Assembly (NCBI GenBank): GCA_016839555.1
Contig: JAEOUA010000010.1
Location: 160,001 to 224,000, forward strand
Length of the DNA: 64,000 nt
DNA from: Promethearchaeota archaeon
GTDB taxonomy: Archaea; Asgardarchaeota; Lokiarchaeia; Sigyniarchaeales; SOKP01
Reading direction: 5' to 3'
A program made the translations under genes and the position numbers. The notes under the pieces were generated by a model that did no database searches, was not told the origin of the DNA, and saw only the letters and a program-made list of their open reading frames with translations. Numbering within the stretch: the first letter of the stretch is position 1; every line of letters starts with the position of its first letter. Shown here one piece after another: positions 21,270-49,693 of this stretch.

Positions 21270-21938
21270 ATGAAATATTTTTTAGATAGTGCGAAACTTA
21301 AAGAAATAAAATATGCTTATGAAAATTGGGGGATTAAAGGAGTCACCTCGAATCCAAAACACGTGAAGAGTTCCGGAAAACCTTTCTACACTGTTATTAA
21401 AGAATTTGCGGAAGAATTTGATAATATTGATTTTCCAATTTCTGTGGAAATCGATCCTCACATAAAAAATGCAAAGGAGATGATTGAACAAGCAATAAAG
21501 ATCGCAAAACTCTCACATAATTTCGTGATTAAAATTCCTTGTAATGAACAAGGATTAATAGCTACTAAAAAGCTCTCCGAACAAGGGATAAAAGTGAATG
21601 TGACTTTAGTCTTCACGGCGTCTCAAGGGATTCAAGTGGGCCGGATCGGGGCAAGATATTGTTCTCCTTTTATAGGATGGCAAGAGGCTTCTGGAGTTGA
21701 TTGCTCGTTATTTCTTTCTGATCTAATCTCTATATATGAAAGTTATGATTTTGATACAGAAATTATCGTCGCTGCGCTGCGAAATGGTAAGCAAATAGCA
21801 GAAGCAGCAGCTTTAGGAGCAGATATTGTTACTTGTGGATTTGATGTCTATAAAGATTCCTTTGAGCATCCATTTACTGATAAAGGATTAGAAATATTTC
21901 AAGATGCGTGGGATCAGACCGAAAAAGGTTTTTTATAA
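21270..21938 (+). CDS. Transaldolase (TalC/FSA fold), sulfofructose transaldolase SqvA/SftT-like
   Basis: FLDSA, VIKIP Schiff-base Lys, NVTLVF; SPFIGW with Trp where canonical transaldolases have phosphate-binding Arg; AALRNGKQI; close recalled similarity to Bacillus SqvA. Confidence 0.8.
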   Translation: MKYFLDSAKLKEIKYAYENWGIKGVTSNPKHVKSSGKPFYTVIKEFAEEFDNIDFPISVEIDPHIKNAKEMIEQAIKIAKLSHNFVIKIPCNEQGLIATKKLSEQGIKVNVTLVFTASQGIQVGRIGARYCSPFIGWQEASGVDCSLFLSDLISIYESYDFDTEIIVAALRNGKQIAEAAALGADIVTCGFDVYKDSFEHPFTDKGLEIFQDAWDQTEKGFL

Positions 21939-22040
21939 TAAGAAAAAATTTTTTAATTTACTTAAATTGATTTCTATTATAATAAAAAGCTTTTTTGAAA
22001 ATAATTAATTACACAGAAATAATAACTTTCCAACCGAAAA

Positions 22041-23486
22041 ATGAAAAAAGATACTTTAATTCTTGGTGGAGGTCCTTCGGGCTTAGCTGCCGCTTATGAA
22101 CTTCATAAACATAATAGGGAATTTATTGTTGTAGAAAAAGAAGAAAAAGTAGGGGGCTTAGCAAAAACACTTCATTTTGGGGACTTTAGCACTGATATTG
22201 GTCCACACCGCTTCTTTTCACAAACTCAATATCTATATGATATGATCGATTCAATGTTGGGAAAAAAGTGGAATAAAGTTAATCGATTGACTAGATTTTT
22301 AATGAAGGGACGCTATTTTTTATATCCTGTAGATTTACGAAATGTTATATTAAATTTAGGGATCGCAAGAGGTTTAAGAATTGTTATGGATTATTTGAAG
22401 CAATTCTTTTTAAATAAATTACAAAAAAAAGAAATTAGATCTTTCGAAGATATCGCTGTTAGTGAATTTGGTAGATCTCTTGCAGAATTGAATATGCTAA
22501 ATTATACAGAAAAGATATGGGGGCTTCCAACCAATATGATTTCAGCGGATTGGTTTAAGCAAAGAATCAAGGGACTCTCTATTAGAGCAATTCTAAATGA
22601 TATGCTCTTTAAAAAGATTAAACAAGGAGAAGGTCCTAAGACTTTAGTAGATCAATTTTATTATCCAGAAACTGGCACATCTCTAATTTATGAATCAATT
22701 GTTGACAGAGTCTCCGAAGGTGCAAATGGTGTGGTGAAAACATCAAGTATTCCTATAAAAATCAATCATAATAATAATAAAATCTTGAAAGTGACTATCC
22801 AAGAAAAGGGAGGAAACAAATCTTACCAAGTAAATAATCTTATATCCTCAATACCTTGGAATGAACTTCTAGAAACATTTGAACCCGCACCTCCGGAAAG
22901 CGTAATGGAAGCACTAGATCATCTAATGTTTAGATCACATGTTTCAGTATTTATCACGTTAGATAAAGAACAAGTCTTTAAAGATCAATGGTTATATTTT
23001 CCAGAAAAAGAAGTTCCATTTGGCAGAATGATGGAACCAAAAAACTTTAGTGAAAAATTAACTCCTAAAGGTAAAACTTCTTTAATGGTTGAATATTTCT
23101 GCTGGGAAGATGGAAGAAATGAAAAATATAAGGTATGGAACCTTCCAAAAGAAAAGATCTTCAAATTAACAATAAAATGGTTAGAAAAAATGGGATTCAT
23201 TAAAGAAGAAAAAGTTATTAATTGTTATATCCATAAAGAGAAGTATGCATATCCCGTATATGATTTATTTTACAAAAAATATAGAGACCATGTGAAAGAT
23301 TATTTAGGACAGTTCGAAAATCTTCAATTAATAGGAAGGTCTGGCAATTTTCGCTACAATAACCAAGACCACGCCTTAGAAATGGGTATAATTGCTGCTC
23401 GCAGTATAATTGAGGGTAAACAATATGATCTAGAAAAAATCGGTACTGAAAATAAGTATTTTGAAAGAGGATATATAACCAATTAA
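22041..23486 (+). CDS. FAD-dependent oxidoreductase, UDP-galactopyranose-mutase/protoporphyrinogen-oxidase-like
   Basis: GGGPSGL, VGGLAKT, DIGPHRF, YTEKIWG, YAYPVY, GRSGNFRYNNQDH. Confidence 0.8.
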   Translation: MKKDTLILGGGPSGLAAAYELHKHNREFIVVEKEEKVGGLAKTLHFGDFSTDIGPHRFFSQTQYLYDMIDSMLGKKWNKVNRLTRFLMKGRYFLYPVDLRNVILNLGIARGLRIVMDYLKQFFLNKLQKKEIRSFEDIAVSEFGRSLAELNMLNYTEKIWGLPTNMISADWFKQRIKGLSIRAILNDMLFKKIKQGEGPKTLVDQFYYPETGTSLIYESIVDRVSEGANGVVKTSSIPIKINHNNNKILKVTIQEKGGNKSYQVNNLISSIPWNELLETFEPAPPESVMEALDHLMFRSHVSVFITLDKEQVFKDQWLYFPEKEVPFGRMMEPKNFSEKLTPKGKTSLMVEYFCWEDGRNEKYKVWNLPKEKIFKLTIKWLEKMGFIKEEKVINCYIHKEKYAYPVYDLFYKKYRDHVKDYLGQFENLQLIGRSGNFRYNNQDHALEMGIIAARSIIEGKQYDLEKIGTENKYFERGYITN

Positions 23487-23502
23487 AAAAATTGAGAAAA
23501 TA

Positions 23503-23964
23503 ATGAGTTCAGATTTAAATAAGGAACCCGAAAGAAAAATTGAAGAGGAACAACAAGAAAAAGGTCCTATTTCCACTTTTAAAGAATTTTTGTCTTATGT
23601 TTTATTTGCTGGAATTGCGACAATAGTTGATATGGGATTATTATTTTTATTAACTGAATATGCATTTCAGTTCAATTATGATTATTTAATTTCTGCCATA
23701 ATTTCATATTTATGTGGGATGATTACAAATTACACCTTAAATAAATATATTACATTTAAAAATACAAGTAAAAGAATTGCCCCTCAATTTGGAGTATTTA
23801 GTATAGTTGCATTAATAGGCTTAGGATTAAATGAATTAATCCTTTGGTTCTTTACTGAATTTACTTTTCTGACTTATATTTATTCAAAATTACTTTCAGT
23901 CGTAATAGTAATGCTATGGAGTTACCTTGGTCACAAGAAATTTACTTTTAAGCTTTTTAAATAA
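23503..23964 (+). CDS. GtrA family lipid-phosphate-sugar flippase
   Basis: Four TM helices; YVLFAGIATIVD, NYTLNKYITF, WSYLGHKKFTF. Confidence 0.88.
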   Translation: MSSDLNKEPERKIEEEQQEKGPISTFKEFLSYVLFAGIATIVDMGLLFLLTEYAFQFNYDYLISAIISYLCGMITNYTLNKYITFKNTSKRIAPQFGVFSIVALIGLGLNELILWFFTEFTFLTYIYSKLLSVVIVMLWSYLGHKKFTFKLFK

Positions 23965-24075
23965 GATTTAATAATTATAGAAAGATAAGATATGGTTTAG
24001 AATATTAAATACTAAAACATAAAAAAAAACAAATTTTACAAAAGCTTAATAATTTGAAAAAGGTTAAAAAACAGT

Positions 24076-24288
24076 TTATTCCTCCTCTTCCATCATAGAT
24101 TCTATTTTTAGTTCTAATTGCTCAATTTTTTCATCAATTTTTTCAATATTTTCAAAAATTTCACAAGATTCACAGCCATGTTCATCTTTACATTGAGGAA
24201 GGGTATCGCAATTCTCTTCAAGAGCATCTCGTTCATCCATTAGTTTTTCAATTTCCTTTTCAAGCTTTTCTATACTCATCAAAACCAC
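24076..24288 (-). CDS. Small acidic coiled-coil hairpin protein with four-Cys metal site
   Basis: Heptad-rich helices flanking C-x5-C-x5-C-x2-C. Confidence 0.6.
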   Translation of the reverse strand: MVLMSIEKLEKEIEKLMDERDALEENCDTLPQCKDEHGCESCEIFENIEKIDEKIEQLELKIESMMEEEE

Positions 24289-24508
24289 TATTTAATTTTA
24301 ATAATGAAAAATGCTTCATTATTTAATTCTTTTTTTTATTTTAAGATTTTTTATAGCTTTTTATTACCTTCATGAAATTTGATATAATTACTTTTGAACA
24401 TTTTCTTTTAGAACCAATACTAAAAATAAGTTAATTCTAAAAAGTTTAATAAAACTTTAAATTATAAAACCAAATACATTGAAAAATATCATAATGGTAA
24501 GAATTTAA

Positions 24509-25891
24509 TTGAAATTAACTAAGCCAGATTTATACTTTATATTAGTTTTAATATTAGGTATTTTTCTGAGGATATTATCATTAATTGGTATTGAAATTGA
24601 ACCTGATTCTTACACTTATTTAGAAGGTACAATAAATATTATTAATTTTGAATATAATGCTTTACGTCCTCCCGGATTTCCTTTAACTATTGTGCCCTTT
24701 CTGTTATTAACTAATAATGGATTTTTTTCTATAAAATTAGCTTCTTTTACTTTTAGTGTCTTAACAATCATATCTTCTTATTTTATTTTTATTAAAGCCT
24801 CACTCAAACTTTTCGGGACTAATGATGAGAGAACTAATGAAAAATCTAAATATATAGGTTTGATTGTAAGCTTTTTTTTATCCTTCAATCTCTATTTTAT
24901 AAATAATTCTGGTAGGGGGTTGAGAGAAGAATTTATGGCTCTCACAGTTATTCTAATATTTTATATTATAATGGTAAAAAATAAATGTAATTTAAAAGAA
25001 AATATTTCTTTAGGATCCCTAATTTCATTTTTAACACTAACTCATCTTACGGGTGGTCTTTTTATCACCTTAGGAATCTTATTTTTTTATTTCATTTCAA
25101 AACTAAAATATTTTAAATTTAAAACAATATCATTCAGAACTCTCTTAATTATTTTTCTCTCTTTTGGAATAACTTTTGTTCTCTGGGCTTTTTTTTGTGA
25201 TATACATTTTGGGGATTCTTTAATTAATTGGCATCAACATAATAAAACATTTCAAATCAAATATGGAATTGATCTTAGTACGATTGAGAATGTTTTTAAA
25301 GCTTTAATTAATGCTTTAATTTTTGGATTGCCATCTGAATTTATATATTTAGGTGCTTTATCTTCTTTCGTTTTTATTTTTTTAGTTATTTCTATTTTAA
25401 TTAAAAATTTAGTGAAAAAACAATTTTTATTTATATTTATGATAGGTGGACTCAATTTTGCTTATTTAAGCATTTTTATGACAATTCCAAGGGTTCTAAT
25501 CTACTTTTTTCCGTTAATATTCTATCTTGGAGCAATTCCACTAGGATCAACTATAATTGAATTTAAGGAGAGAAAAAATGCTTTTCAAAAAAATATGCTT
25601 TATTTACTGGTTATATTCTTTATTTCCTATATTATTCGTGGAATAGATAGCATGGCTATTATTTTTTCATTATATCAAGTCTATAATTATGTACCTTGCT
25701 TTTGTAATTATAATGTAATCGCCAATCAATTTTATCAAGAACTTAGTATTTTTCGAATTATTCTTGATATCTTTTTTGCGATAATAATTGAATTATCCTT
25801 ATTGATATATTTAATAAGAAGTAGGTATTTGAATTACTTTTTATTAGTAGATACTTCTTACAACATTCAGAAAGATATTAATAAATCTTAA
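24509..25891 (+). CDS. GT-C fold membrane glycosyltransferase (PMT/ArnT-like), paralog 1
   Basis: DSYTY after TM1, RPPGFP, GLREE, THLTGG, GDS, PRV; about 11-13 TM. Confidence 0.75.
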   Translation: MKLTKPDLYFILVLILGIFLRILSLIGIEIEPDSYTYLEGTINIINFEYNALRPPGFPLTIVPFLLLTNNGFFSIKLASFTFSVLTIISSYFIFIKASLKLFGTNDERTNEKSKYIGLIVSFFLSFNLYFINNSGRGLREEFMALTVILIFYIIMVKNKCNLKENISLGSLISFLTLTHLTGGLFITLGILFFYFISKLKYFKFKTISFRTLLIIFLSFGITFVLWAFFCDIHFGDSLINWHQHNKTFQIKYGIDLSTIENVFKALINALIFGLPSEFIYLGALSSFVFIFLVISILIKNLVKKQFLFIFMIGGLNFAYLSIFMTIPRVLIYFFPLIFYLGAIPLGSTIIEFKERKNAFQKNMLYLLVIFFISYIIRGIDSMAIIFSLYQVYNYVPCFCNYNVIANQFYQELSIFRIILDIFFAIIIELSLLIYLIRSRYLNYFLLVDTSYNIQKDINKS

Positions 25892-25976
25892 AAGAAAATG
25901 TCTTCCCTAAAAAGTTTTAATATTGTTTTTAATTAATAGAATAAATACGGAGTGATATAACTTTTAGGTATTTAAG

Positions 25977-27359
25977 TTGATAAAATTATTCAAAAAAATA
26001 GATTCTTATTTCTTAATAATATTAATTGCTGGAATCATCTTTAGATTCCTATCCTTTTTATTTGTACCAATTGTTGATGATACTGTTTCTTATATTGAGA
26101 GCGCAAAGTTTATTATTGAATTAAATTATGAATCTTTACGACCACCGGTATTTCCATTATTAATAGTCCCTTTTCTCTTATTAACTGGTGATGGGGCAAT
26201 CTCCGCTAAGATAATATCTTTGATATTAAGTATTTTATTAATTATATCAACTTATTTTGTATTTGTAGAGGCATCACAAAAATTATTTGAAAAAGAGGAA
26301 TATAGAGAAAAGAAAGCTAGAAAAATAGGTTTAATAGTCTCTTTTTTGATAACATTTAATCTATATTTTATAATTCATAGTGGTAAGGGTTTAAGAGAAG
26401 ACTTAATAGCTTTAATTTATATCTTATTATTTTATTTTATTATGATAAAAGAACAACTGTCTTTACGGGATAATATCTCATTAGCAATTCTAATTTCATT
26501 ATTAATTCTTACTCAATTAAGTACAGGATTCTTTACAATTATTGGAATTATTTTATTTTGTATTCTTTCAAGAATTAAACGTTTTAAATTGAAATCTATC
26601 TCAAATAATAAGTTATTCGTCATTTTAAGTTCATTTGGATGCTCTTTTTTTCTCTGGTGCCTTTTTTCAGCATATAAATGGGGGGATCCGTTAGCCAACT
26701 GGAATATTCAGGGTGCATGGTTTGGAATTAAATATGGTGTGAGTATTTCCACATTTGAAGATCTAATAAGAGCAATATTACATGCTTTAACTTTTGGGCT
26801 CCCATCAATTTTTATATACTTATTTGTATTGTTTGGTTTTGTTTTTATAATAATAATGCTTTTCTTTTTCATTAAAAATCTTAAAAATGAACAAATTCTT
26901 TTCATTTTCATAATTGTATTTTTAAATTATGCCTATTTAACTATCTATGTTACGACTCCAAGGGTTATAATGTATTGTTTCTATATATTAATTTTTATTG
27001 CTGCAATTCCAATAGCAATAATTTTGATTGAATTGGAAAAAAGAGAATTATTAAAACAGAAAAAAGTGAATTATTTATTTATCATCTTTTTAGTTACTTA
27101 TATCTTAAGAGGCCTTGATACTATTTCTATTATATATTTAATATATCAAATATATAATTATATTCCACATTTCGGTAAAGTCAATACAATTATTTCTATT
27201 TTTTACCAAGAAATTAATCCCATTACGCTAACTTTAATTATAGCAATTATAATAATCAATGAAATTTCTCTTCTACTGATTTTCATAAAAAGTAAAAATT
27301 TTCTTTCTTTCAAAGTAGAAAAAAATTTTAAAGATTCTTGTAATTATGAAGAATTTTAA
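25977..27359 (+). CDS. GT-C fold membrane glycosyltransferase, paralog 2
   Basis: DDTVSY, RPPVFP, GLRED, GDP, PRV. Confidence 0.75.
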   Translation: MIKLFKKIDSYFLIILIAGIIFRFLSFLFVPIVDDTVSYIESAKFIIELNYESLRPPVFPLLIVPFLLLTGDGAISAKIISLILSILLIISTYFVFVEASQKLFEKEEYREKKARKIGLIVSFLITFNLYFIIHSGKGLREDLIALIYILLFYFIMIKEQLSLRDNISLAILISLLILTQLSTGFFTIIGIILFCILSRIKRFKLKSISNNKLFVILSSFGCSFFLWCLFSAYKWGDPLANWNIQGAWFGIKYGVSISTFEDLIRAILHALTFGLPSIFIYLFVLFGFVFIIIMLFFFIKNLKNEQILFIFIIVFLNYAYLTIYVTTPRVIMYCFYILIFIAAIPIAIILIELEKRELLKQKKVNYLFIIFLVTYILRGLDTISIIYLIYQIYNYIPHFGKVNTIISIFYQEINPITLTLIIAIIIINEISLLLIFIKSKNFLSFKVEKNFKDSCNYEEF

Positions 27360-27425
27360 AATATTTTTAAATACATCATGTAAAGATTATTTCACATAAA
27401 ATAATTAAAATAAATATAGTAAAAA

Positions 27426-28769
27426 ATGTTTGAATTAAAAAAAATAGATAAATACTTTCTGTTTATTTTATGTATTGGTTTAATATTTCGATTAGTCGCC
27501 TTATTTAAGGTAGATGCTGCTCTTGATTCATATACTTATTTAGCAGCCGCAAAAAGTATTATTGCTTTTGATTATAATTCATTTAGAGCACCCGGATTCC
27601 CAATCTTTATGATTCCTTTTTTTTTATTTCCTCATAATTATCCTTTAATTAACGCTCCAGAATCTAAAATAGTTCTTATAATATTGAATAATCCAAATCT
27701 CATCATAACTGCTCAAATTACATCTATGTCAGCAGGTATTTTATTAATTATCTCCTCTTATTTTGTTTTTTCTAAAGCTGCAATAAAATTAAGTACTAAA
27801 GAAGGAAAAATAACTCAAAATAATGCAAAATATGTCGGATTGATTGTAAGTTGTTTAATATCATTTTCTTTGCCTTTTATAATTAATTCTGTTCAAGGAT
27901 TAAGGGAAGAATTATTGGCAGTCTTAATTTTAATTATTTTCTATTATGTTATTATTAAAGAAAAGTTAGCTTTACGTGATAATCTTTTTCTGGCTTTATC
28001 GATTGCATTATTGACCCTAACTCATCTCACGGCGGGAATCTTTATAACTGTGGGAATCATTCTATTTTTTCTAGTTTCTAAATTGAAATTCTTCAAATTT
28101 AATAACATTTCAAACTTAAAGATATTAATTTGTCTATTAGGACCCCTCATCTCATTTTTATTGTGGGGGTGGTTTTGTTATGTAAAATTTGGAGATCCCT
28201 TATATAGTCTGAAAGTTCAAAGAGATTTTTTTAAAGATACATATAACCTTGATTTATCTTCAATTAATAATATAATATCTGCTTTAATAAATGGAATAAT
28301 TAATGGTATTCCTTTAGAATTCTATTTCTTATTTATTTTCAACGGAATTGTCTTTATGTTATTAGGTTTATATGTTTTGATTAAATATATAAAGCAAAAA
28401 CAATTTCTATTTATTTTTATTATAACAGGAGTAAACTTTGCTTATCTAAGTGTATTTATGGCAATTCCAGGAGATTTAAGATTATTACTCTATTTTTTCC
28501 CGATAATAATTTATTTGGGAGCACTTCCGATAGGTATTACAATAAATGATTCAACTCATAAATCAGCAAAATTTATGAAATATTTATTAATAATATTTTT
28601 TTTAACATATTCTTTTCGGGGATTAAAAAATTTAGGTTTTTTTAGTTACCTTTTTGTAAATTATTTTTCAGAGATAATCTATTGGTTATTCTTTTTAATC
28701 AATGAAGGATCTCTTTTAATATATTTAATCAAAATTAGGAATAAATTCATATTGAAAATATTAAAATAA
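27426..28769 (+). CDS. GT-C fold membrane glycosyltransferase, paralog 3
   Basis: DSYTY, RAPGFP, GLREE, THLTAG, GDP, DLR. Confidence 0.75.
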   Translation: MFELKKIDKYFLFILCIGLIFRLVALFKVDAALDSYTYLAAAKSIIAFDYNSFRAPGFPIFMIPFFLFPHNYPLINAPESKIVLIILNNPNLIITAQITSMSAGILLIISSYFVFSKAAIKLSTKEGKITQNNAKYVGLIVSCLISFSLPFIINSVQGLREELLAVLILIIFYYVIIKEKLALRDNLFLALSIALLTLTHLTAGIFITVGIILFFLVSKLKFFKFNNISNLKILICLLGPLISFLLWGWFCYVKFGDPLYSLKVQRDFFKDTYNLDLSSINNIISALINGIINGIPLEFYFLFIFNGIVFMLLGLYVLIKYIKQKQFLFIFIITGVNFAYLSVFMAIPGDLRLLLYFFPIIIYLGALPIGITINDSTHKSAKFMKYLLIIFFLTYSFRGLKNLGFFSYLFVNYFSEIIYWLFFLINEGSLLIYLIKIRNKFILKILK

Positions 28770-28791
28770 GAAATCTTAAAAAATAGTTAAA

Positions 28792-30150
28792 TTGGTTAAT
28801 CTTCTGATGAAAAAATTATATAAGAATAATATAGACTTTTATTTTTTAATTAGTTTATTAATTGGAACAATTCTAAGAGTTTTTATGTTCTTAAATAACT
28901 ATATAGTTCCTGATACATATCTATACTTCGATGCTACAATTGACTTGCTTAAAAACGATTATAATTCGTTTAGACCACCTGGATTTTCTATTACAATTCT
29001 TCCTTTTTTATTATTAATAGGTAGTGGTCCTTTATCAGCACGATTAACTTCTCTAAGTTTTAGTATCTTTTTAATAATCTGTTCTTATTTTGTATTTACT
29101 AAAGCTTCCTTGAAATTATTAAATAGGGACAAAAATAATAAATTAAAAGCAAAATTCGTAGGTTTCATAGTAAGTTTTTTAATATCATTTAATCTTTTCT
29201 TCATATTTAATAGTGGCAAAGGATTAAGAGAAGAGCTTTTAGCAGTTTTAATTATAATTATTTTTTATTTCACCATTATAAAGGACAAAACGAATTTAAG
29301 GGAAAATATTTATTTAGCAATTTTGGTTTGCTTATTAGCTCTTACGCATCTCTCGGCAGGAATTTTTGTGACTATCGGAATTTTCCTATTCTTCGCAGTT
29401 TCTAAATTGAAATTCTTTAAATATAATAACATTTCAAACTCAAAGATATTAATTATTTTTCTAGCCACCTCCATCTCATTTTTATTTTGGGGATTATACT
29501 CTTATTATAAATTTGGAGATTTTTTATATAATCTTCATTATCAAAATTTATGGTTTAAAAAATGGTATAATTTAGATTTGTTTTCTTCGGTTGATGATAT
29601 AATTAATGCATTACAAAATGCGGTAAAATTTGGAATTCCAACTGAATTACTATATCTTATTAGTTTAATTGGTTTTGTATTAATGATTCTGTTTTTTTTT
29701 ATGTTAATTGTTAATATTAAAGAAAGACAAATGTTTTTTATTTTTATAGTACTTTTGATTAATTTTGCTTATCTAAGCATATTTTTAGGTGTTCAAGGCA
29801 AATTAATGATTCCTAAAACTCCAGGGCATGAGCCTAGCCCAAGATTGATAATATATTTTTTTCCATTTATCTTTTATTTAGGTGCTCTCCCCCTAGGAAT
29901 TTCGTTTAAAGAATCGAAAATTATCAATTGGCAGTCAAAAAATTATTCTGAACTCTTATTAATTATTTATTTCTTATCATATCCTATACATGGCATACAG
30001 TTTTTTCTTATTAATATTTCTCTTTTGCAATCTTTTCTGATTGGTTTTAGTATATTTATTTTTTTAATAAATGAATTACCATTATTGATTTATATAATGA
30101 AAAACAGAAATAAGGACTATTATTTTCTTAAAGCATCATCTAACTATTAA
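28792..30150 (+). CDS. GT-C fold membrane glycosyltransferase, paralog 4
   Basis: PDTYLY, RPPGF, GLREE, THLSAG, GDF, PRL. Confidence 0.75.
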   Translation: MVNLLMKKLYKNNIDFYFLISLLIGTILRVFMFLNNYIVPDTYLYFDATIDLLKNDYNSFRPPGFSITILPFLLLIGSGPLSARLTSLSFSIFLIICSYFVFTKASLKLLNRDKNNKLKAKFVGFIVSFLISFNLFFIFNSGKGLREELLAVLIIIIFYFTIIKDKTNLRENIYLAILVCLLALTHLSAGIFVTIGIFLFFAVSKLKFFKYNNISNSKILIIFLATSISFLFWGLYSYYKFGDFLYNLHYQNLWFKKWYNLDLFSSVDDIINALQNAVKFGIPTELLYLISLIGFVLMILFFFMLIVNIKERQMFFIFIVLLINFAYLSIFLGVQGKLMIPKTPGHEPSPRLIIYFFPFIFYLGALPLGISFKESKIINWQSKNYSELLLIIYFLSYPIHGIQFFLINISLLQSFLIGFSIFIFLINELPLLIYIMKNRNKDYYFLKASSNY

Positions 30151-30255
30151 GATCTTTTTAAACTAAAGAATAAATAAGTGTTATAAAAAGCTTTTAATTA
30201 TTTATAAAATTATTTAGAAAAATATCAGATTAAATTTAATATAAAGGTTTTTAGA

Positions 30256-31614: not shown

Positions 31615-31716
31615 TTTGGAAATCAAACATAAATATATTTAATCAAATAAATTTTATTTTTTAAAAACAATGATATATTATAATATTGTAAAAAAATGAT
31701 TTTATAAGAGAAAAAA

Positions 31717-32334
31717 ATGCATCCAGAAGTATATTACAAATTCGAAGAAATTTTAGTTAGGAATAACATTAATGGTAAAGTTTTAGAAATTGGGGCAGTT
31801 CCAAGTAATGAATCTTTATTAGCTTCAAAAACCCTAGATAAAGCTTCAGAAAAAATTGGACTAAATATAAATAAGGCGGCGAATTATAAAGATTTCAAAA
31901 TTATAGAGGGAAATTCTAACAATATGGAACAATTCAATGATGAGACATTTGATTGTATAATTAGCAATGCTACTTTAGAGCATGACAAATTCTTTTGGAA
32001 ATCTATCTCAGAGATGAAGAGAATCTTAAAAAAGGGGGGGTTATTAATTATAGGTTGCCCCTCATATGTTCAAATAGATAAAGAGATGAATTATTTCTTT
32101 AAAAAATTTTTATCATTACTACTTAAAGCATATTACAGAATTGTAAAGAGAAATCCAACATATATTAATATTGATGGATGTACTGCTTGTCTCAGAGTTC
32201 ATAACTTTCCAGGAGATTATTATAGATTTAGTAATCAAACCTTTAAAGAGGTATTTTTTAAAGGATTTAATAATGTTACTATTGAAACTATTATGCTGCC
32301 ACCAAGAACAATTGCGTATGGGTATAAAATTTAA
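31717..32334 (+). CDS. Class I SAM-dependent methyltransferase (glycan-associated type)
   Basis: VLEIG, FDCIISNATLEH, RILKKGG, HNFPGDYYRF. Confidence 0.88.
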   Translation: MHPEVYYKFEEILVRNNINGKVLEIGAVPSNESLLASKTLDKASEKIGLNINKAANYKDFKIIEGNSNNMEQFNDETFDCIISNATLEHDKFFWKSISEMKRILKKGGLLIIGCPSYVQIDKEMNYFFKKFLSLLLKAYYRIVKRNPTYINIDGCTACLRVHNFPGDYYRFSNQTFKEVFFKGFNNVTIETIMLPPRTIAYGYKI

Positions 32335-32479
32335 AAGTTTTATATGAATATCAAATTGGAAAAAATTTTTTAGGATTTTTTAAATAAATATTCCATAAAG
32401 ATCATATTCTGAAAGCTTTTAATTCTTTACTAAATTATTTAGAAAAATACTAGGATAAAAAAATTTAAAGGTTAACAAT

Positions 32480-33793
32480 TTGCGAATAAAATTAGAAAAA
32501 ATTGATTCTTATTTTTTAATTATTTTAATACTTGGGAGTATCTTGAGATTAATTTTTGTATTAACAATACCATTAAATGTAGATTCTTACCCATTCATAA
32601 GAGCGGCAATGGGGATCCTTGAATTAGATTATAATAAATATGGAACTTTTCGACCTCCAGGATTTCCTCTTCTAATTGTTCCATTCCTCATTTTGACTGG
32701 AAATGGCAGCGCAGCAGCAAAATTGGCTTCCTTTACCTCTAGTATTCTCTTAATAATTTGTTGCTTTTATGTATTTAGAAACGCTTCTATGAGATTTTTT
32801 AGTGAAAGTGAAAAAAAAAGAGAAAAAGCTACTTATATTGGCTTTTTAGTGAGTTTTTTAATCTCAATGAATATTTATTTTATAGTTCATCCCGGTTATG
32901 GAATAAGAGAAGAATATTTAACACTATTGGGTATATTAGTTTTCTATTTCACCGTAATTAAAGAAGAAAGTACATTTAAATATAATATCTTTTTGGGACT
33001 TTCAATTTCATTGCTTACCCTCACGCTCTTAACCACAGGTCTGTTTTTCACGGTAGGAATTATCCTATTTGTCCTAATTTCAAGATTAAAATGGTTTAAA
33101 TTTAAACCTATGCCAATTAAAAAAGTATTAATAATTGTGATTGCTTTCTTTATCTCATTTATTTCTTGGGCTGTATTTAGTCACTATACTTGGGGAGATG
33201 CATTTTATAATTGGCAAGTTCAAAGTATTTTTTATGAAAATTTTTACAAAATGACTTTAGATTCAATTGATAATATAATTCAAGCTTTATTTAATGCTTT
33301 AACTGGTGGAATTCCTTATGAGTTTTATTATTTATTCTTTTTTATTAGTTTTTTCTTTATTATTATAGTGTTTTATATTATAATAAAAAATATTCGGATT
33401 AAACAGGTTCTTTTTATTTTTTTGGTGATTGGTCTTAATCTATTATATTTAAGTGTATTTATTGCTCCAAGTAAATTAATAAATATTCCGAATAGTTCAC
33501 GGGTTATGGTATATTTATTACCATTCTTCCTTTATTTAGGCGCTATTCCTTTAGGAAATATCTTAGTAGAATTGAAATATAGTAAGGAAAAATACTCAAA
33601 ATATATTATTTCTTTATTTATTATATTTTTAGTAACATATACTCTTAAAGGATTTCCATTTATATTTAAATTAGGATTTGGGGGTTTTCCTTTTCCAACT
33701 CATCCTTTATTCATAATTTTTTTATGCATTAACGAAATATCTATTTTTATTTTTCTTATAAAAACTAAAAATATAAAATATTCCTTGAACTGA
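32480..33793 (+). CDS. GT-C fold membrane glycosyltransferase, paralog 6
   Basis: DSYPF, RPPGFP, GIREE, GDA, SRV. Confidence 0.75.
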   Translation: MRIKLEKIDSYFLIILILGSILRLIFVLTIPLNVDSYPFIRAAMGILELDYNKYGTFRPPGFPLLIVPFLILTGNGSAAAKLASFTSSILLIICCFYVFRNASMRFFSESEKKREKATYIGFLVSFLISMNIYFIVHPGYGIREEYLTLLGILVFYFTVIKEESTFKYNIFLGLSISLLTLTLLTTGLFFTVGIILFVLISRLKWFKFKPMPIKKVLIIVIAFFISFISWAVFSHYTWGDAFYNWQVQSIFYENFYKMTLDSIDNIIQALFNALTGGIPYEFYYLFFFISFFFIIIVFYIIIKNIRIKQVLFIFLVIGLNLLYLSVFIAPSKLINIPNSSRVMVYLLPFFLYLGAIPLGNILVELKYSKEKYSKYIISLFIIFLVTYTLKGFPFIFKLGFGGFPFPTHPLFIIFLCINEISIFIFLIKTKNIKYSLN

Positions 33794-33858
33794 AAATCCC
33801 ATGAAAATATAATTCATTACAATGTCAAAAAACAATAAAAAAATCTAGGTAAAAAGAT

Positions 33859-34788
33859 TTGGCAGATGTTAATTATAATTTTCTTCTATCATTAATTATC
33901 ATTATAATTGGTTTTATTTTAAAATATTTTAACATCATTAAAGAGAAAAACGGAAAAATAATTGCAAAACTAGTATTCAACATCACATTACCAGCTATTA
34001 TTTTTCGAACTATTTATACGATTATTATTACTCCTCAATTGTTTTTATTAACTATTATACCCATTTTTTATGCATTTTTTATATTGGGAATCTCATATAT
34101 ACTTTTTCGTAAAAAAGACCAAAATATAAAAGGATTATTATTTATGTGTGTTTTAGGATTTAATGTTGTACATTTGGCTTTTCCCCTTGTCGAAGGCATC
34201 TGGGGAAAAGAAGGATTAAAATATATAGCTATGTTTGATATCGGAAATGGATTTGTAATATTCCTTCTAAGTTATTTGGTTGGATCTATATTTTCACCAA
34301 AAAATAATTTACTCCATCAAAAGCAATTAATGAAAAATAGTTTGAAAAAAGTTTTAACTTCCGGGCCGTTAATAGCTTATTTAATCGCTATACCGATAAA
34401 TATCTTTGGTATTATTATTCCTATCTTTATAATTGATATAATTGATAAATTTGCAGATGCAAATTCTGCTTTAACATTATTATTATTGGGGATATTTTTG
34501 AATTTTAAGTTTGAAAAAGATCAATGGAAAAAAATTCTTTCAGTTTTAGGAATTCGTTATTTTTTAGGTTTATCGGTGGGATTATTTCTTTTTTTAATCC
34601 TGCCTTTTAATTTATTATATCGTGGGATTTTAACTATTGCATTAATATTACCTATTGGATTGGCAGTGATTCCTTTCACTGTAGAATTCGAATATAATGA
34701 AAAACTTGCTGGCACAATGGCAAATATTTCGATAATTATTTCTTTTATATTAATGTGGCTATTAATCTTGATTCTTGGTTTTGGTTGA
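33859..34788 (+). CDS. AEC (auxin efflux carrier/malate permease) family transporter
   Basis: LVFNITLPAIIF, AFPLVEGIWG, LTLLLLG; about 10 TM. Confidence 0.85.
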   Translation: MADVNYNFLLSLIIIIIGFILKYFNIIKEKNGKIIAKLVFNITLPAIIFRTIYTIIITPQLFLLTIIPIFYAFFILGISYILFRKKDQNIKGLLFMCVLGFNVVHLAFPLVEGIWGKEGLKYIAMFDIGNGFVIFLLSYLVGSIFSPKNNLLHQKQLMKNSLKKVLTSGPLIAYLIAIPINIFGIIIPIFIIDIIDKFADANSALTLLLLGIFLNFKFEKDQWKKILSVLGIRYFLGLSVGLFLFLILPFNLLYRGILTIALILPIGLAVIPFTVEFEYNEKLAGTMANISIIISFILMWLLILILGFG

Positions 34789-34912
34789 ATTTTCAATAAA
34801 TTAATTATTAAATTCTAAGAATTAATATATTCAATAATAAGAGCTTAAAATAGAGATTGATTATTTGTATAAAATATTAATAGTTTTCTAAATTATTAGA
34901 CAAAACAATTAA

Positions 34913-36295
34913 ATGAATATAGCTGAGGTTTCGGAAAAAATTATGATAAAAAAGTGTAATAAATGTAAATATTATTTCCTAATAATTCTAAGCATAAACA
35001 TCATTGTTAAACTTTTATCTTTCTCATCTACTCCGCTATTTTTTGATTCCTACACATATTTAATTGCTGCACAAGATATTATTAATTTGAATTATGAATC
35101 TTATCGGGCACCATTTTTCCCACTCTTAATTGTTCCTTTTTTATTTTTAACTAAAAATCCCTCTCTCTCCATTAAATTAGTTTCATTTTTAACCAGTATA
35201 TTTTTAATTATAATTTCATATATTATCTTTTCTAAAGCAGCTATGAAAATATTTGATAGAAATAATGAAAATTATAAGCAGAAAGGAAAATGCGTTGGAT
35301 TACTTGTTTGTTTTTTGATTTCATTTAATCTATATTTTCTTTCCCATGATTTAAAAGGACTAAGAGAAAGCTTATTATCCATTTTAGTATTATCTATATT
35401 TTATTTTACGATTATCAAAGAAAATATGAAGTTACAAAACAATATTTTCCTAGCTTTATCTATTTCTTGGCTTACGCTCACGCTCTTGACCGCAGGAATT
35501 TTTATTACTATTGGAATACTCTTGTTTTATTTAATATCAAAATTCAAAAGGTTTAAATGGAAATCGATTGAAGGGAGAAAAATACTAATCATTACTTTAG
35601 CATTTATTCTACCTTTTTTCTTATGGACTTTTTTTAATTTGTGTAAGTCTCTCCCCCCTTTTTATAGTTTAAATGTTCAAAGCCTCTGGTTTAAATTCGA
35701 ATATGGTCTTGAAATCACTTCAATCAGTGGATTAATTGATGCTTCTATAAATGCTCTAATTTTTGGAGTGCCCTCTTTATTTATTTATCTTATAGTTTTA
35801 ATTGGTTTTCTTTTTATAGCGATAATGATTTATGTGTTAATTAAAAATTTTAGAAAAAGACAGTTTCTTTTTCTATTTTTCTTTATAGGGGTTAATTTAG
35901 CTTATTTAAGTTTTTTCATTACAACACCGAGAGTAATTATGTATTTTTTTCCTTTTTTCTTATATTTAGGTGCATTGTATTTAACCAATATAATCTTTAA
36001 TATTAAGAATGGACAAATTAAAAACAAAAAAACTATGGTTTACTTGTTAATGATTTTTCTAATAACCTATATACTTCGAGGAATAAATGGTCTATCGATA
36101 ATCTATTTGATTCTTCAATTTTATAATAATATCCCGCTAAATATTAATTTCTATAAAATTTTATTTCAATTTTCTGAGTCTTTTTCTTCTCTAGGAGCAA
36201 TCATTAGTATTGTTTTTTCAGTAATAAATGAAGTCGCACTTCTCATCTATGTTATTAAGAGTAGCTATTTGAATATCTCTTGTGAATTTTCTTGA
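34913..36295 (+). CDS. GT-C fold membrane glycosyltransferase, paralog 7
   Basis: DSYTY, RAPFFP, GLRES, TAG, PRV. Confidence 0.75.
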   Translation: MNIAEVSEKIMIKKCNKCKYYFLIILSINIIVKLLSFSSTPLFFDSYTYLIAAQDIINLNYESYRAPFFPLLIVPFLFLTKNPSLSIKLVSFLTSIFLIIISYIIFSKAAMKIFDRNNENYKQKGKCVGLLVCFLISFNLYFLSHDLKGLRESLLSILVLSIFYFTIIKENMKLQNNIFLALSISWLTLTLLTAGIFITIGILLFYLISKFKRFKWKSIEGRKILIITLAFILPFFLWTFFNLCKSLPPFYSLNVQSLWFKFEYGLEITSISGLIDASINALIFGVPSLFIYLIVLIGFLFIAIMIYVLIKNFRKRQFLFLFFFIGVNLAYLSFFITTPRVIMYFFPFFLYLGALYLTNIIFNIKNGQIKNKKTMVYLLMIFLITYILRGINGLSIIYLILQFYNNIPLNINFYKILFQFSESFSSLGAIISIVFSVINEVALLIYVIKSSYLNISCEFS

Positions 36296-37066: not shown

Positions 37067-37068
37067 TT

Positions 37069-37311: not shown

Positions 37312-37335
37312 TCAGAATCTTTAGATTTTGATTTT

Positions 37336-37380: not shown

Positions 37381-37509
37381 TTTGAATATTTAAATTTTTC
37401 TATTTTAGTATTCAATTTTTCTATGCACTTTAAAGATAATAAATTGAAAAATTAAAAAAAGACCTTTTAAGTAATCCATAATAAAATTATTGAATAAAAA
37501 AACACTGAA

Positions 37510-38832
37510 TTGTTTATGAAAAAAAAAATAAAAATAGGTCTTGTATGTTTAGCAAGAAAAACCTTTGATTTCGGGGCCGCCCATGAGATATATAAAAAAA
37601 TTCAAAAAGATTTAAGGCAAATAGAGAATGTTGAATGGGAAATTATAGAGGATCTTATTACTGAAATTGAGAATGCAAAACAAGGTGCCCATTATTTTGA
37701 CTCACAACAGATTGACGCCCTTATATGTATAAGTGGGACATTTGCCTTAGGTCATTTAGTTTTAGAATTAAATAAAGTAAGACAAAAACCAATCTTATTA
37801 TGGGGATTAAAGGAACTTCCTTATAATGGTGGTAAAATCCGACTAAATTCTGTATGTGGAATAAATCTCAATGCCTCAAATCTCTATAAAGCAGGAGTTA
37901 AAAATTTTCACGTAGTAATTGGAGATAAAGTAGATAATGATTGGATTGATGCTATTAGAATTATAAAAGCTTTCTCCGAAGCTCATATCGGAATAATCGG
38001 CTCCAGAGCACATGGATTTTTTAATTTAGATGTTGATGAATTAAACCTCTATGAAAAATTAGGTGTTTTAATTGATTATTATCAATTAAGTGATGTATTC
38101 AATCAAAATATTGATTATTTTAATCTTAATCAACGAATAGAGCAAATTAAATCTCTTTTCAATGTTTCAGATTTAAATTCAAATCAAATAGAAAAAGTAG
38201 CTGAATTAATAATTAAATTTGAAACCTTCATGGAAAAAAACCAATTAACATCTATGGCAATAAGATGCTGGCCAGAATTTGCAGAAAAATTTGGAATATC
38301 TCCTTGTGCTTCTATGTCAATTTTACAATCTGAAGGGAAAATATTAACATGTGAGGGGGATATATTAGGGAGTTTATCAATGATCGCTCATCAGGCTATT
38401 GGAGGAGAAACCCCATATTTAGCGGATTTTTCCCAAGTGGATTTTGAGAATGATTTTGGTCTTTTATGGCATTGTGGAGTAGCACCCTGTAATTTATGGG
38501 ATGGTAAGTGCGAGAGAGCTCTCGATTCTTATTTTGCTGGAGGGAAGGGAGTGACTGCCGATTTTGTAATGAAATCTGGAAAACTTTCCATTTTACGTAT
38601 AGATTATGCCCCAGGAGAATATAGACTCTTCCTTCAAAAAGGTGAAGCTATTCCAATGGATAAACAATTGAAAGGGACCTACGCAAAAGTTAAATTCCCA
38701 GATCATATTTCCAAAGTTCTTAATAAGATTATACATAATGGTATTGCTCATCACCTTTCCGTAGTATATGGGGATTATATTCGCCCTCTCGAAATCTTTG
38801 CTAAAATTAAAAATTTTAAAGTAATAAACTAA
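37510..38832 (+). CDS. L-fucose isomerase-like sugar isomerase, sulfoquinovose isomerase SqvD/SftI-like
   Basis: RKTFD, GGKIRLNS, AIRCWPE, CEGD, WHCG, HH motifs; co-oriented with YihQ-like GH31. Confidence 0.75.
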   Translation: MFMKKKIKIGLVCLARKTFDFGAAHEIYKKIQKDLRQIENVEWEIIEDLITEIENAKQGAHYFDSQQIDALICISGTFALGHLVLELNKVRQKPILLWGLKELPYNGGKIRLNSVCGINLNASNLYKAGVKNFHVVIGDKVDNDWIDAIRIIKAFSEAHIGIIGSRAHGFFNLDVDELNLYEKLGVLIDYYQLSDVFNQNIDYFNLNQRIEQIKSLFNVSDLNSNQIEKVAELIIKFETFMEKNQLTSMAIRCWPEFAEKFGISPCASMSILQSEGKILTCEGDILGSLSMIAHQAIGGETPYLADFSQVDFENDFGLLWHCGVAPCNLWDGKCERALDSYFAGGKGVTADFVMKSGKLSILRIDYAPGEYRLFLQKGEAIPMDKQLKGTYAKVKFPDHISKVLNKIIHNGIAHHLSVVYGDYIRPLEIFAKIKNFKVIN

Positions 38833-38865
38833 TAAAGATCAAAATATCTAAAGGGCGATAAAATA

Positions 38866-40839
38866 ATGATTTTAGAAATAAGTAAAAATGGTTTTAAAAT
38901 ATTTTATAGAAATTATCTTTTTATCAATCATAATACTAAAAATCCAGCCTTCAAATTAGGAATTGGTAAAGGAAAGTATAGTATGCGTATGGGTGATTTC
39001 AAAATCAGAGAGAAATTAAAACAAAAAATTCCTTTATCAAATTTTAAAATAATCTCAAAAAATAAAAATCAAACATTAATCGAACTTAGTTCAAAAGAAT
39101 ATAAATTAAAAGTTAAAATAGTAGAAAAACAGGAAAACTTATGGTTTCATTTTACCACTCCAAATGAGAAGATAAATCGATTTTGGATCTCATTAGTTGC
39201 AGAAGAAAATGAAGCAATATTGGGGTGTGGAGAACAATATTCTGAATTAAATCTTAGGGGAAAAGAAGTTCCTTTATTCGTAGAAGAGCAAGGTGTTGGA
39301 AGAGGGGACCCTCCTTGTACAGGAGATTGGTATACTACATATTATCCTCAACCAACTTTTATCTCTTCAAATAATTATTATTGTCATGTGGATACTACAT
39401 ATTATTCAAAATTTGATTTCACTGATAAAAAAAAACACGAATTATATATTTGGGAAGTTCCCAATGCCATTATTCTTGGGAAATTTGATAATTTATTAGA
39501 TACAATTAGCAATCTGTCTAATTACCTTGGAAGGCAACCAAAATTAGTTGATTGGGCATATGATGGACTCTGGTTGGGTCTCCAAGGAGGAAAAGAGGTT
39601 ATAGAAAAAGCAATTAAAATATGTAAAGAGCATAAAATTAAGTTAAGTGCAGTTTGGTGTCAGGATTGGGAGGGCATTAATATGACATGTCAAGGAAAGC
39701 AATTATTTTGGAATTGGGAATATGATCACAAGTTATACCCAGATTTACCGAATTATATTGAGGAATTACAAAAAAAGAATATAAAATTCTTAGGCTATAT
39801 CAATCCTTATTTAAATAATTTAGGATCTTTACATAAAGAGGCCAAGAAAAAGGGATATCTTATTAAAAATTTTGAGGGCGAAATTCTTTATGATGATTCT
39901 ACACCTGAAAATTGTTTTGCTATTATAGACCTTACAAATCCAGAAGCTTTTGAATGGATTAAATATGTAATCATTAATAATATGATTAAGATTGGATTAG
40001 ACGGATATATGTGTGATTATGGGGAATATACTCCCCTAGATATTAACCTTCATTCTGGAATAGATCCTGAAGCATTTCATAATCAATACCCTGTTTTTTG
40101 GGCAAGAGTAAATTATGAAGCTTTAAAACAAACTAATTCACTTGATAAGGTGACCTTTTTTAATCGATCTGGATATACACATTCTTCAAAATATGTCCCA
40201 ATCATGTGGGCAGGTGATCAATTAGTTACATGGAGTATACATGATGGATTACCTTCTATTATTCCTGCTGGGCTCTCATTAGGTTTATGTGGCATTGGTT
40301 ATTTTCATTTTGATATTGGAGGATTTCATTCATTAATGGGGCAAAAACGGACTAAAGAAATTTTTCTTAGATGGACTGAATTAGCAGCATTTTCAATTAT
40401 AATGCGTTCTCATGAAGGAATTAAACCCTGGGATAATTGGCAATATAATTCTGATGAAGAGACACTAAAGCATTTAAGCAAAATGGTCAAAATTCATATA
40501 AAATTAAAATTATATTTCCAGTCCTGCTCTAATATCTATCAAAAAAAGGGATTACCGATAATGCGCCCTTGCTTTTTACATTATGATAACGATCCTATTC
40601 TTTATGACTTAAAATATCAATTTTTAATTGGAAGAGATTTACTGATTGCCCCAGTTATTAAACCAAACCAAAAAGAATGGAATATATATTTACCAGAAGA
40701 TGATTGGATACACCTCTGGACTAGTCAAAAATTTTCTAAAGGATGGATAACTATTAGTGCTCCGATTGGAAAACCTCCAGTATTTTATAGGGCAAAATCG
40801 AAATATAGAGAATTATTTAAGGATTTAAAAAAGATATAA
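38866..40839 (+). CDS. GH31 alpha-glucosidase, sulfoquinovosidase (YihQ/SftG)-like
   Basis: GCGEQYS, EQGVGR, TYYPQPTF, WCQDW, WNW, CDYGEY nucleophile, WAGDQ acid/base, RSHEG. Confidence 0.85.
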   Translation: MILEISKNGFKIFYRNYLFINHNTKNPAFKLGIGKGKYSMRMGDFKIREKLKQKIPLSNFKIISKNKNQTLIELSSKEYKLKVKIVEKQENLWFHFTTPNEKINRFWISLVAEENEAILGCGEQYSELNLRGKEVPLFVEEQGVGRGDPPCTGDWYTTYYPQPTFISSNNYYCHVDTTYYSKFDFTDKKKHELYIWEVPNAIILGKFDNLLDTISNLSNYLGRQPKLVDWAYDGLWLGLQGGKEVIEKAIKICKEHKIKLSAVWCQDWEGINMTCQGKQLFWNWEYDHKLYPDLPNYIEELQKKNIKFLGYINPYLNNLGSLHKEAKKKGYLIKNFEGEILYDDSTPENCFAIIDLTNPEAFEWIKYVIINNMIKIGLDGYMCDYGEYTPLDINLHSGIDPEAFHNQYPVFWARVNYEALKQTNSLDKVTFFNRSGYTHSSKYVPIMWAGDQLVTWSIHDGLPSIIPAGLSLGLCGIGYFHFDIGGFHSLMGQKRTKEIFLRWTELAAFSIIMRSHEGIKPWDNWQYNSDEETLKHLSKMVKIHIKLKLYFQSCSNIYQKKGLPIMRPCFLHYDNDPILYDLKYQFLIGRDLLIAPVIKPNQKEWNIYLPEDDWIHLWTSQKFSKGWITISAPIGKPPVFYRAKSKYRELFKDLKKI

Positions 40840-49691: not shown

Positions 49692-49693
49692 TC

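Follow-up and report, generated by a model that had tools for sequence, protein, structure and literature searches.

A putative, rearranged sulfo-transaldolase-type gene set with a substituted YihQ-family glycosidase in an Asgard archaeon

Analysis of a 64-kb stretch of the genome of a Promethearchaeota archaeon (contig JAEOUA010000010.1 of assembly GCA_016839555.1), here called the window at its full length, found three intact open reading frames encoding a transaldolase, a fucose-isomerase-like protein and a YihQ-like glycoside hydrolase of family 31 (GH31) (Table 1). From comparisons with related genomes, we consider it somewhat probable, at roughly 55%, that the sulfo-transaldolase (sulfo-TAL) type gene set of Asgard archaea is present here in a rearranged and derived form, and we give the same odds to a functional route of this derived kind, for which neither the glycoside substrate nor the fate of the three-carbon (C3) fragment is certain. 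In the proposed route, the cytoplasmic YihQ-family GH31 would free a 6-sulfo-type sugar from an alpha-glycoside, the FucI-like isomerase would turn the aldose into a ketose, and the SqvA-type transaldolase would move carbons C1-C3 onto glyceraldehyde-3-phosphate, yielding fructose-6-phosphate and a C3 sulfo-aldehyde. The sequences themselves show what the genes are, which residues line the pockets and how the genes are linked in other genomes; from this we infer the activities and a sugar that would be sulfoquinovose, an abundant sulfur sugar of plants and algae, or a close derivative. The source assembly (G000) is 92% complete, which bounds every genome-wide absence reported here. The host is of Asgard type, as a first-pass annotation of this DNA had proposed: the nearest homologues of all three proteins are labelled Promethearchaeota or Lokiarchaeota, and the flanks of the genes carry HdrA/MvhD, FrhB and archaeal thiolase/OB-fold genes.

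By its sequence, the transaldolase belongs to the genuine SqvA/SftT type. In a search of the sequences of solved structures, its residues 1-217 align to the Bacillus sulfofructose transaldolase BmSF-TAL (PDB 8bc3) with 321.7 bits (E 2.5e-95), and the top match to an ordinary transaldolase, 1vpx, reaches only 156.5 bits. It matches PF00923 with 144 bits and the NCBIfam model of FSA/TalC enzymes, TIGR00875, with 180.5 bits, under the cut-off of 245.95. The motifs NPKH, SPFIGW and AALRNGK align to NPRH, SPFVGW and AALRNGK of the Bacillus enzyme. As in BmSF-TAL, Trp occupies the phosphate-binding Arg position of SPFxGR, in contrast to the ordinary transaldolase of locus L054, which reads SPFVGR; the second pocket Arg is kept within the heptapeptide AALRNGK, identical in both proteins, and the first, that of NPRH, is replaced by Lys. 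Arg-Trp-Arg is the sulfonate pocket of the Bacillus enzyme, with the Arg of NPRH as its first member, and the VIKIP stretch presumably holds the Schiff-base Lys.

Both the SqvA-like character of this protein and the Lys at the first Arg had been put forward in the first-pass annotation, and both are confirmed: the match to 8bc3 runs the full length with all three motifs, and a Lys-Trp-Arg (K-W-R) pocket is the norm among Asgard transaldolase copies (115 of 120), irrespective of the GH31 class on the same contig. Bacterial sulfo-TAL clusters whose sulfoquinovosidases (SQases) have the canonical Arg-Trp-Tyr (RWY) motif show NPKH too (L027, L029, L075), and Lys at this position is therefore a natural conservative variant. 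Copies in Asgard contigs are 73-91% identical to that of the window; the loci compared (L005, L117 and so on) include metagenomic contigs whose genes group with Asgard copies.

Linkage of the transaldolase to YihQ-like GH31 genes was assessed in two samples, one of 151 genomes of the phylum and one of 400 genomes weighted towards the family of the source genome. Five of the 151 genomes, source included, carry the sulfofructose (SF) type transaldolase (at least 69% identity), always sharing a contig with a YihQ-like GH31 that lies at most ~18 kb away; 41 others have an ordinary transaldolase alone (31-42% identity), and none had both types. The SF-type gene occurs in 38 of the 400 genomes, source included. 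Among the 37 other carriers, 33 have a YihQ-like GH31, which in 21 lies on the same contig within ~12 kb, sustaining the earlier proposal that the three genes belong together. In the window itself, a distance of 15.6 kb separates the transaldolase from the isomerase, and one of 16.9 kb separates it from the GH31. Replacement of a housekeeping transaldolase by the SF-type one was considered and rejected: a TAL_FSA gene of the ordinary or the long type accompanies it in 12 of the 37 other carriers, which makes the SF-type transaldolase an accessory gene.

The isomerase, which likely starts at the ATG at 37516, carries the RKTFD and RLNS motifs and matches Pfam Fucose_iso_C; the GH31 starts 34 bases past its end, in agreement with the first-pass description of a fucose-isomerase-like gene directly upstream of the glycosidase. 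Its further assignment as an orthologue of SftI/SqvD is not borne out. The lone NCBIfam match, to the SftI model, scores 247 bits where the cut-off is 700 (E 2.6e-73, model positions 6-435 of 443), and identity to Bacillus-type SftI proteins, encoded next to other RWY-type YihQ genes, is 22-31%. It shares 66-87% identity with the products of genes adjoining the transaldolase and GH31 in Asgard loci and 53-61% with those adjoining RWY-type YihQ genes in anaerobic bacteria (Caloramator, Halanaerobium, Clostridia and Spirochaetota); in Caloramator and Clostridia, this subfamily also stands beside an SF-type transaldolase, and in L025 and L027 it adjoins both an RWY-type YihQ and an SF-type transaldolase. 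A search of solved-structure sequences with the isomerase returned nothing useful. Its context argues for a second, uncharacterised type of sulfoquinovose isomerase.

The GH31 was correctly recognised as YihQ-like: it scores 820.2 bits against the NCBIfam YihQ model PRK10426/NF007746 (cut-off 553) and 645.9 bits against E. coli YihQ (5aed), and it has no signal peptide. In the alignment to 5aed, the nucleophile D405, the acid/base D472, Q262, Q288 and W304 are kept, the catalytic Asp pair being invariant, and three residues are substituted (R301Q, Y508F, T509H); the first-pass annotation had missed the changes at 301 and 508. The Q/E-RWY element (Q288, R301, W304, Y508) is described as responsible for sulfonate recognition in YihQ and in the Agrobacterium enzyme (PMC12780224). 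The first-pass statement that the organism catabolises sulfoquinovose relied on the GH31 as an SQase and, since this protein fails the defining motif at two of three sulfonate ligands, is unsupported as stated. We do not file the GH31 as an SQase by motif, although it may still work like one.

To place this variant, 216 YihQ-like sequences were sorted by their residues at positions 301, 304, 508 and 509 (E. coli YihQ numbering), which gave 73 RWYT, 8 RWYS, 54 RWFH, 48 QWYT and 14 QWFH sequences, the window's type, and 19 of rarer states; RWY is the state of practically all of the 60-odd bacterial genes from ordinary sulfoglycolysis contexts. QWFH sequences form a small Asgard clade of 12 (support 1.0) whose members are 65-84% identical with identical motif stretches, which indicates purifying selection; on this evidence, the window GH31 is a conserved variant maintained by selection, not a gene in decay. 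The sister of this clade is a group of mostly Asgard QWYT sequences (support 0.876). An origin of QWFH within the RWFH clade is rejected by this placement, and the Phe-His pair thus arose twice. Loop positions 347, 350 and 351 and position 519 of the HEGN motif co-vary with the Arg/Gln and Tyr/Phe switches; Thr is found at 347 in most Gln-type relatives and Asn at 519 in all Tyr-type relatives. Three loci carry paired YihQ-like GH31 genes with differing pockets, RWYT and QWYT in tandem in L082 (7910-12007) and on opposite strands in L024 (7688-12040), and QWYT and LYFS in tandem in L092 (9995-13946), which suggests that the classes have distinct substrates.

In relatives, the gene set is compact. 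L117 has the transaldolase, a reductase, a Mem_trans transporter, the isomerase and an RWYT-type GH31 contiguous on one strand; L122 has the transaldolase, reductase, isomerase and GH31 contiguous; and the P0098 contig runs from an MFS gene through transaldolase, reductase, isomerase and an RWYS-type GH31 to FlpD, HdrA-like, CCG and FrhB genes. These last four also follow the GH31 in the window. There they belong to a large redox cluster of HdrA-like, MvhD (FlpD), CCG and FrhB-like genes (41831-54585), which flanks the sulfo-TAL-type operon in L005, L007 and the P0098 contig as well. The operon reductase of the relatives is 31% identical to the product of an E. coli gene that precedes yihQ by 4.3 kb on its strand and is presumably yihU, and homologues of 46-56% identity occur in bacterial transaldolase clusters.

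In the window, as the first-pass annotation had noted, the set is split by an array of GT-C-like paralogues between transaldolase and isomerase. L005, L006, L103 and L104 retain this split, and their isomerase and GH31 are 82-87% identical to those of the window. The intervening block measures 15.5 kb, has a GC content of 23-25% against 27-33% elsewhere, and contains a single operon gene, that of the Mem_trans (PF03547, auxin-efflux-carrier type) transporter. Homologues of this transporter lie between reductase and isomerase in L117 (55% identity) and occur in L092 (51%) and in the bacterial clusters L019, L022, L144 and L170 (32-38%). It is an operon remnant stranded in the array, not noticed in the first-pass annotation, and a candidate for export of a sulfonate or import of a sugar.

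Lateral acquisition of the genes, as proposed earlier, is plausible from their patchy distribution and from the position of the Asgard GH31 clade among bacterial ones, but a recent transfer is not supported: the genes match their flanks in GC, so that any transfer would not be recent. No tRNA genes that could mark an integration were found in the window.

Partner genes track the pocket type. The region 7099-20184, upstream of the span covered by the first-pass annotation, holds conserved partners, and its sulfatase, Amidohydro_2, NagB-like and GFO/IDH/MocA (GFO) genes (14159-20184, minus strand) lie head-to-head with the transaldolase. In L009 and L105, the GH31 is co-directional with the cytoplasmic sulfatase (in L009 also with the Amidohydro_2, NagB-like and GFO genes) and the transaldolase is divergent. 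Sulfatase orthologues of 72-76% identity lie between transaldolase and GH31 in L007, L009 and L105, and others of 61-63% lie near the GH31 in L091, L094 and L122, that of L091 and L094 being of the RWFH type. Amidohydro_2 orthologues (59-68%) are paired with a NagB-like gene beside transaldolase, isomerase or GH31 genes in L009, L101, L122, L125, L126, L130 and L143; a search of solved-structure sequences with this protein gave nothing useful. The NagB-like protein keeps the catalytic MDEY and GHIAFNEP motifs (alignment to 3hn6 and 2bkv), together with an Arg and a Lys that we take to be anion-site residues.

The NagB-like gene adjoins the transaldolase-(reductase)-isomerase-GH31 set in the QWYT loci L122, L125, L126, L130, L143, L101 and L095, and in all but L095 it is paired with Amidohydro_2. 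Among Asgard-type loci with enough flank, the pair is near 8 of 16 Gln-type and 0 of 14 Arg-type GH31 genes, and in the genome-collection set a NagB-like gene is near 6 of 17 and 1 of 70, respectively; the loci are kin and not independent, so these counts are descriptive and overstate the association. Four Spirochaete loci (L054, L057, L067, L083) carry an ABC transporter-NagB-like-Amidohydro_2-GFO-GH31 (Gln-type) cluster without an SF-type transaldolase or isomerase, to which L083 (85-14556) and L057 add MFS_2, a glycerol-3-phosphate-dehydrogenase-like gene and an FGGY-family (glycerol-kinase-like) kinase. These clusters may encode an undescribed route for glycosyl-glycerol.

Several observations weigh against a working sulfo-TAL-type route in the window. 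The Q/E-RWY motif is broken by the loss of Arg301 and Tyr508, two of the three sulfonate ligands, and the co-varying pocket-loop positions read Pro347, Cys350, Phe351 and Ile519. The first-pass remark that no sulfolactaldehyde reductase was evident holds for the whole genome, where a search with the L092 YihU-like reductase as query gave a best match of 27% identity (89 bits), located on this contig at a distance of 240 kb; three aldehyde-dehydrogenase-family genes were found, all on other contigs. In L007, L009 and L105, which carry the nearest relatives of this GH31, no isomerase lies within 10 kb. The transaldolase is the sole TAL_FSA-family gene found in the source genome (a single copy), so a general pentose-phosphate role is conceivable.

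One possible but tentative alternative is that the set has been re-targeted to a sulfate-ester sugar (alpha-linked glucose-6-sulfate or GlcNAc-6-sulfate) or to an N-acetylated amino-sulfosugar. The Amidohydro_2 protein would deacetylate it, the NagB-like enzyme would deaminate and isomerise it to a ketose, the transaldolase would split this, and the cytoplasmic sulfatase would dispose of the sulfated C3 fragment in place of a reductase and exporter. Such a route would fit the QWFH clade, which has a sulfatase and not a reductase beside the transaldolase (window, L007, L009, L105), the failure to find a reductase, the orthologous sulfatases near RWFH-type GH31 genes, the link of the NagB-like/Amidohydro_2 pair to Gln-type pockets and its recurrence in the Spirochaete module, the retained deaminase motifs, and a more hydrophobic GH31 pocket from which the Arg has gone. 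However, the Gln-type loci L122 and L101 retain a YihU-like reductase and an isomerase in one operon, which fits a sulfonate product; the transaldolase pocket is constant across GH31 classes, the kinship of the loci inflates the counts, and the literature searched documents no such pathway or substrate. It is rather unlikely, but conceivable, that the combination of Gln-type YihQ-like GH31, NagB-like and Amidohydro_2 genes (with GFO and, here, the cytoplasmic sulfatase) could form an undescribed entry into transaldolase-type cleavage, for a substrate other than plain sulfoquinovosyl glycerol, possibly a sulfate ester of a sugar or an amino-sulfosugar in N-acetylated form, with the sulfatase replacing the reductase and exporter for the C3 fragment.

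That there is no sulfosugar metabolism here, the GH31 being a neutral alpha-glucosidase (e.g., for glucosylglycerol-type glycosides) and the transaldolase a general pentose-phosphate enzyme, strikes us as quite improbable. The missing sulfonate ligands, the single transaldolase gene, its distance from the other two genes and the Spirochaete Gln-type clusters with their glycerol-3-phosphate-dehydrogenase-like and kinase genes but no SF-type transaldolase would agree with it, whereas the accessory character of the transaldolase in the 12 carriers with another one, its tight cross-genome linkage with YihQ-like GH31, the Trp in place of the phosphate-binding Arg, and the inactivity on pNP-glucoside of the GH31_13 members tested to date (PMC12780224) speak against it. 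Very improbable, in our estimate, is a decaying remnant, that is, an operon broken by insertion whose pathway no longer works: in its favour are the failure to find a reductase, the split operon, the lack of a canonical start before the Rossmann motif of the GFO gene, and a congeneric genome (G135) devoid of both transaldolase and GH31, but every gene is a full-length open frame with catalytic residues, the split arrangement persists in four related loci, and the QWFH residues are under apparent purifying selection.

Returning to the sulfo-TAL-type reading, the window departs from the transaldolase-reductase-Mem_trans-isomerase-GH31 operon of its relatives in four respects: no close match to the YihU-like reductase was found in its assembly, it carries the 15.5-kb insertion, its Gln-type GH31 also lacks Tyr508, and its transaldolase faces, head-to-head, an operon of sulfatase, Amidohydro_2, NagB-like and GFO genes. 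Both the sugar that enters and what becomes of the C3 fragment therefore probably differ from the bacterial textbook pathway. Because the K-W-R pocket is constant and L122 and L101 keep reductase and isomerase, all these sets would most economically process a 6-sulfo-type sugar via isomerisation and transaldolase cleavage.

Compared with the known sulfo-TAL/sulfo-SFT pathway of Priestia (Bacillus) megaterium, P. aryabhattai and gut Firmicutes such as Eubacterium rectale, the window shares the transaldolase clade, in which Trp stands at the phosphate-Arg position and the second Arg is retained, and the succession of glycosidase, isomerase and transaldolase steps; the operons of Asgard-type relatives add the YihU-like reductase and a transporter. 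It differs in the Lys at the first pocket Arg, in an isomerase from another FucI-like subfamily (22-31%), in a GH31 without Arg301 and Tyr508, in having no linked reductase or dehydrogenase, in the operon split by 15.5 kb and in its archaeal host. With the GH31_13 SQases (E. coli YihQ 5AED, A. tumefaciens 5OHS, 6PNR, 8R56), the window GH31 aligns over its full length at 540-646 bits and shares the lack of a signal peptide and residues Asp405, Asp472, Q262, Q288 and W304, but it departs from them at R301Q, Y508F and T509H, at the positions of E. coli G368, Y371 and G372, and in the HEGN motif (N to I). A GH31 SQase of the SqgH clade, from Alteromonas macleodii, cleaves sulfoquinovosides without the RWY motif; SqgH belongs to another GH31 clade, is 28% identical to YihQ and has predicted Arg and Lys ligands (PMC12780224). 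The window GH31, in contrast, is of the YihQ clade, and no substitute basic residue was identified in it save His509.

The partner genes are reminiscent of the NagA/NagB route for N-acetylglucosamine-6-phosphate, which likewise combines an amidohydrolase with a NagB-family enzyme bearing MDEY and GHIAFNEP. Here, however, the hydrolase is of the Amidohydro_2 family (NagA belongs to Amidohydro_1), the NagB-like protein stays far below its family cut-off, and the pair lies within transaldolase/isomerase/GH31 clusters, not nag operons.

A 2026 review describes all known degradation pathways as bacterial, with none characterised in archaea (PMC12890257), and we found no archaeal sulfoquinovose pathway, Asgard or Lokiarchaeota included, in searchable papers; some database records already call relatives of these proteins 'sulfoquinovosidase'. 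NagB-like, Amidohydro_2 and sulfatase partners go unmentioned in two recent reviews of sulfoquinovose catabolism, and a text search, glucosamine-6-phosphate deaminase included, found none. To this picture the window adds the doubly substituted QWFH clade, a split operon with no reductase match, and the link between pocket type and NagB-like, Amidohydro_2 and sulfatase partners.

Gene sets of this kind occur in about a tenth of the sampled Asgard genomes (38 of 400); if they work, sediment Asgard archaea would join sulfonate cycling. Motif-based SQase surveys would mis-score many such loci, where pockets range over RWY, RWFH, QWYT and QWFH and partner genes shift along with them, and the variation in pockets and partners points to further candidate substrates. 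In genome G220, contig C1, an SF-type transaldolase (68%) is directly followed by a YihU-like reductase (46%), with an isomerase (66%) 4 kb downstream (1782181-1789343), and a QWFT-type, that is Gln-type, YihQ-like GH31 lies 1.2 Mb from the transaldolase (2992462-2994513). These coordinates coincide with CP104013.1 of Ca. Lokiarchaeum ossiferum (locus L015). This archaeon is in culture, and with its transaldolase-reductase pair, isomerase and Gln-type GH31, the idea could be tested there.

Table 1. Features of the window discussed in the text (positions from the first nucleotide of the window).
Coordinates	Strand	Feature	Basis and remarks
7099..8181	+	Enolase-superfamily (MR_MLE) sugar-acid dehydratase-like protein	Pfam, NCBIfam; recurrent neighbour
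10609..13221	+	GH2 glycosidase, beta-mannosidase-like architecture	Pfam; recurrent GH31 neighbour
14159..15466	-	GFO/IDH/MocA NAD(P)-oxidoreductase	Pfam; frame open upstream to ~15610
15607..16455	-	NagB-like (glucosamine-6-phosphate deaminase/isomerase family) enzyme	TIGR00502 86 bits, cut-off 237
16462..17238	-	Amidohydro_2 metal-dependent hydrolase, candidate deacetylase or lactonase	PF04909 54.8 bits
18883..20184	-	Cytoplasmic Cys-type (formylglycine) sulfatase	Pfam Sulfatase and SGSH_C; CSPSR intact, no signal peptide; divergent from transaldolase
20322..21149	+	Sulfotransferase	Pfam Sulfotransfer_3; between sulfatase and transaldolase
21270..21938	+	SF-TAL-type transaldolase (SqvA/SftT clade), Lys-Trp-Arg anion pocket	222 aa; structure-sequence match, motifs
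22041..36295	+	Glycan-synthesis block	PRK07208-type FAD oxidoreductase (UDP-galactopyranose-mutase-like), GtrA, seven GT-C-like paralogues, methyltransferase
33859..34788	+	Mem_trans (PF03547) transporter	Pfam 54.6 bits; inside GT-C array
37510..38832	+	FucI-like aldose-ketose isomerase, 'type A' subfamily, candidate sulfoquinovose-to-sulfofructose isomerase	440 aa; Pfam, NCBIfam, context
38866..40839	+	Cytoplasmic YihQ-family GH31 alpha-glycosidase, 'QWFH'	657 aa; NCBIfam, 5aed alignment, tree
40907..41563	-	DUF998/Frag1-like membrane protein	Weak Pfam matches; directly downstream of GH31

The seven tandem paralogues of the glycan-synthesis block (24509-36295) are ~440-460 aa long and 39-51% identical to one another, with 10-14 transmembrane-like segments and a conserved D-x-Y...RPPGFP stretch at the N-terminus; they follow the PRK07208-type FAD enzyme and GtrA genes. 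A Pfam scan of the seven gave no match, and their nearest Atlas clusters are PMT_2/PMT (GT-C) families (0.96-0.97). A tblastn search for the sulfotransferase at this position in relatives matched only the source genome's own locus, so this gene probably goes with the glycan-synthesis block. The membrane protein gene downstream of the GH31 has a 78% orthologue in the corresponding position of L005 and L006, and a similar gene lies near L092.

The GFO frame spans the Rossmann GAGARG motif, with no ATG, GTG or TTG between the upstream stop and the motif (15467-15610, minus strand). The ATG of the L009 orthologue is ATA in the window, and an ATT follows a GGTG 8 bases upstream; the gene likely starts at ATT or ATA, and would encode either an enzyme with a non-canonical start or an N-terminally crippled one. 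An orthologue of 73% identity lies directly upstream of the GH31 in L009. We found no support for this protein as a GH188 NAD-dependent sulfoquinovosidase: it scores 24.9 bits against 8qc2, a GH188 SqgA entry, and no better against any other structure.

Other neighbours recur as well, namely GH2 orthologues of 51-56% identity in L009, L091, L094, L095, L105 and L114 and MR_MLE orthologues of 74-81% in L009, L097, L101 and L105. The Amidohydro_2 family is also represented in the Spirochaete module of L083. Between the sulfatase and Amidohydro_2 genes, the window carries a LuxE-like (adenylate-forming) acyl-protein synthetase (17408-18601) that has no counterpart there in the L009 operon. A 400-aa protein matching TPP_enzyme_C alone follows the GH31 in the RWFH-type Asgard loci L090 (12086-13288) and L151 (~14953), and its size suggests a fused sulfopyruvate-decarboxylase-like enzyme for further sulfonate processing; no such fused enzyme was found in the source genome. 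At least 25 sites in the source genome match GPH/MFS_2-type glycoside transporters, the best with 59% identity to an operon neighbour in L091, and the organism seems to be specialised for decorated glycosides.

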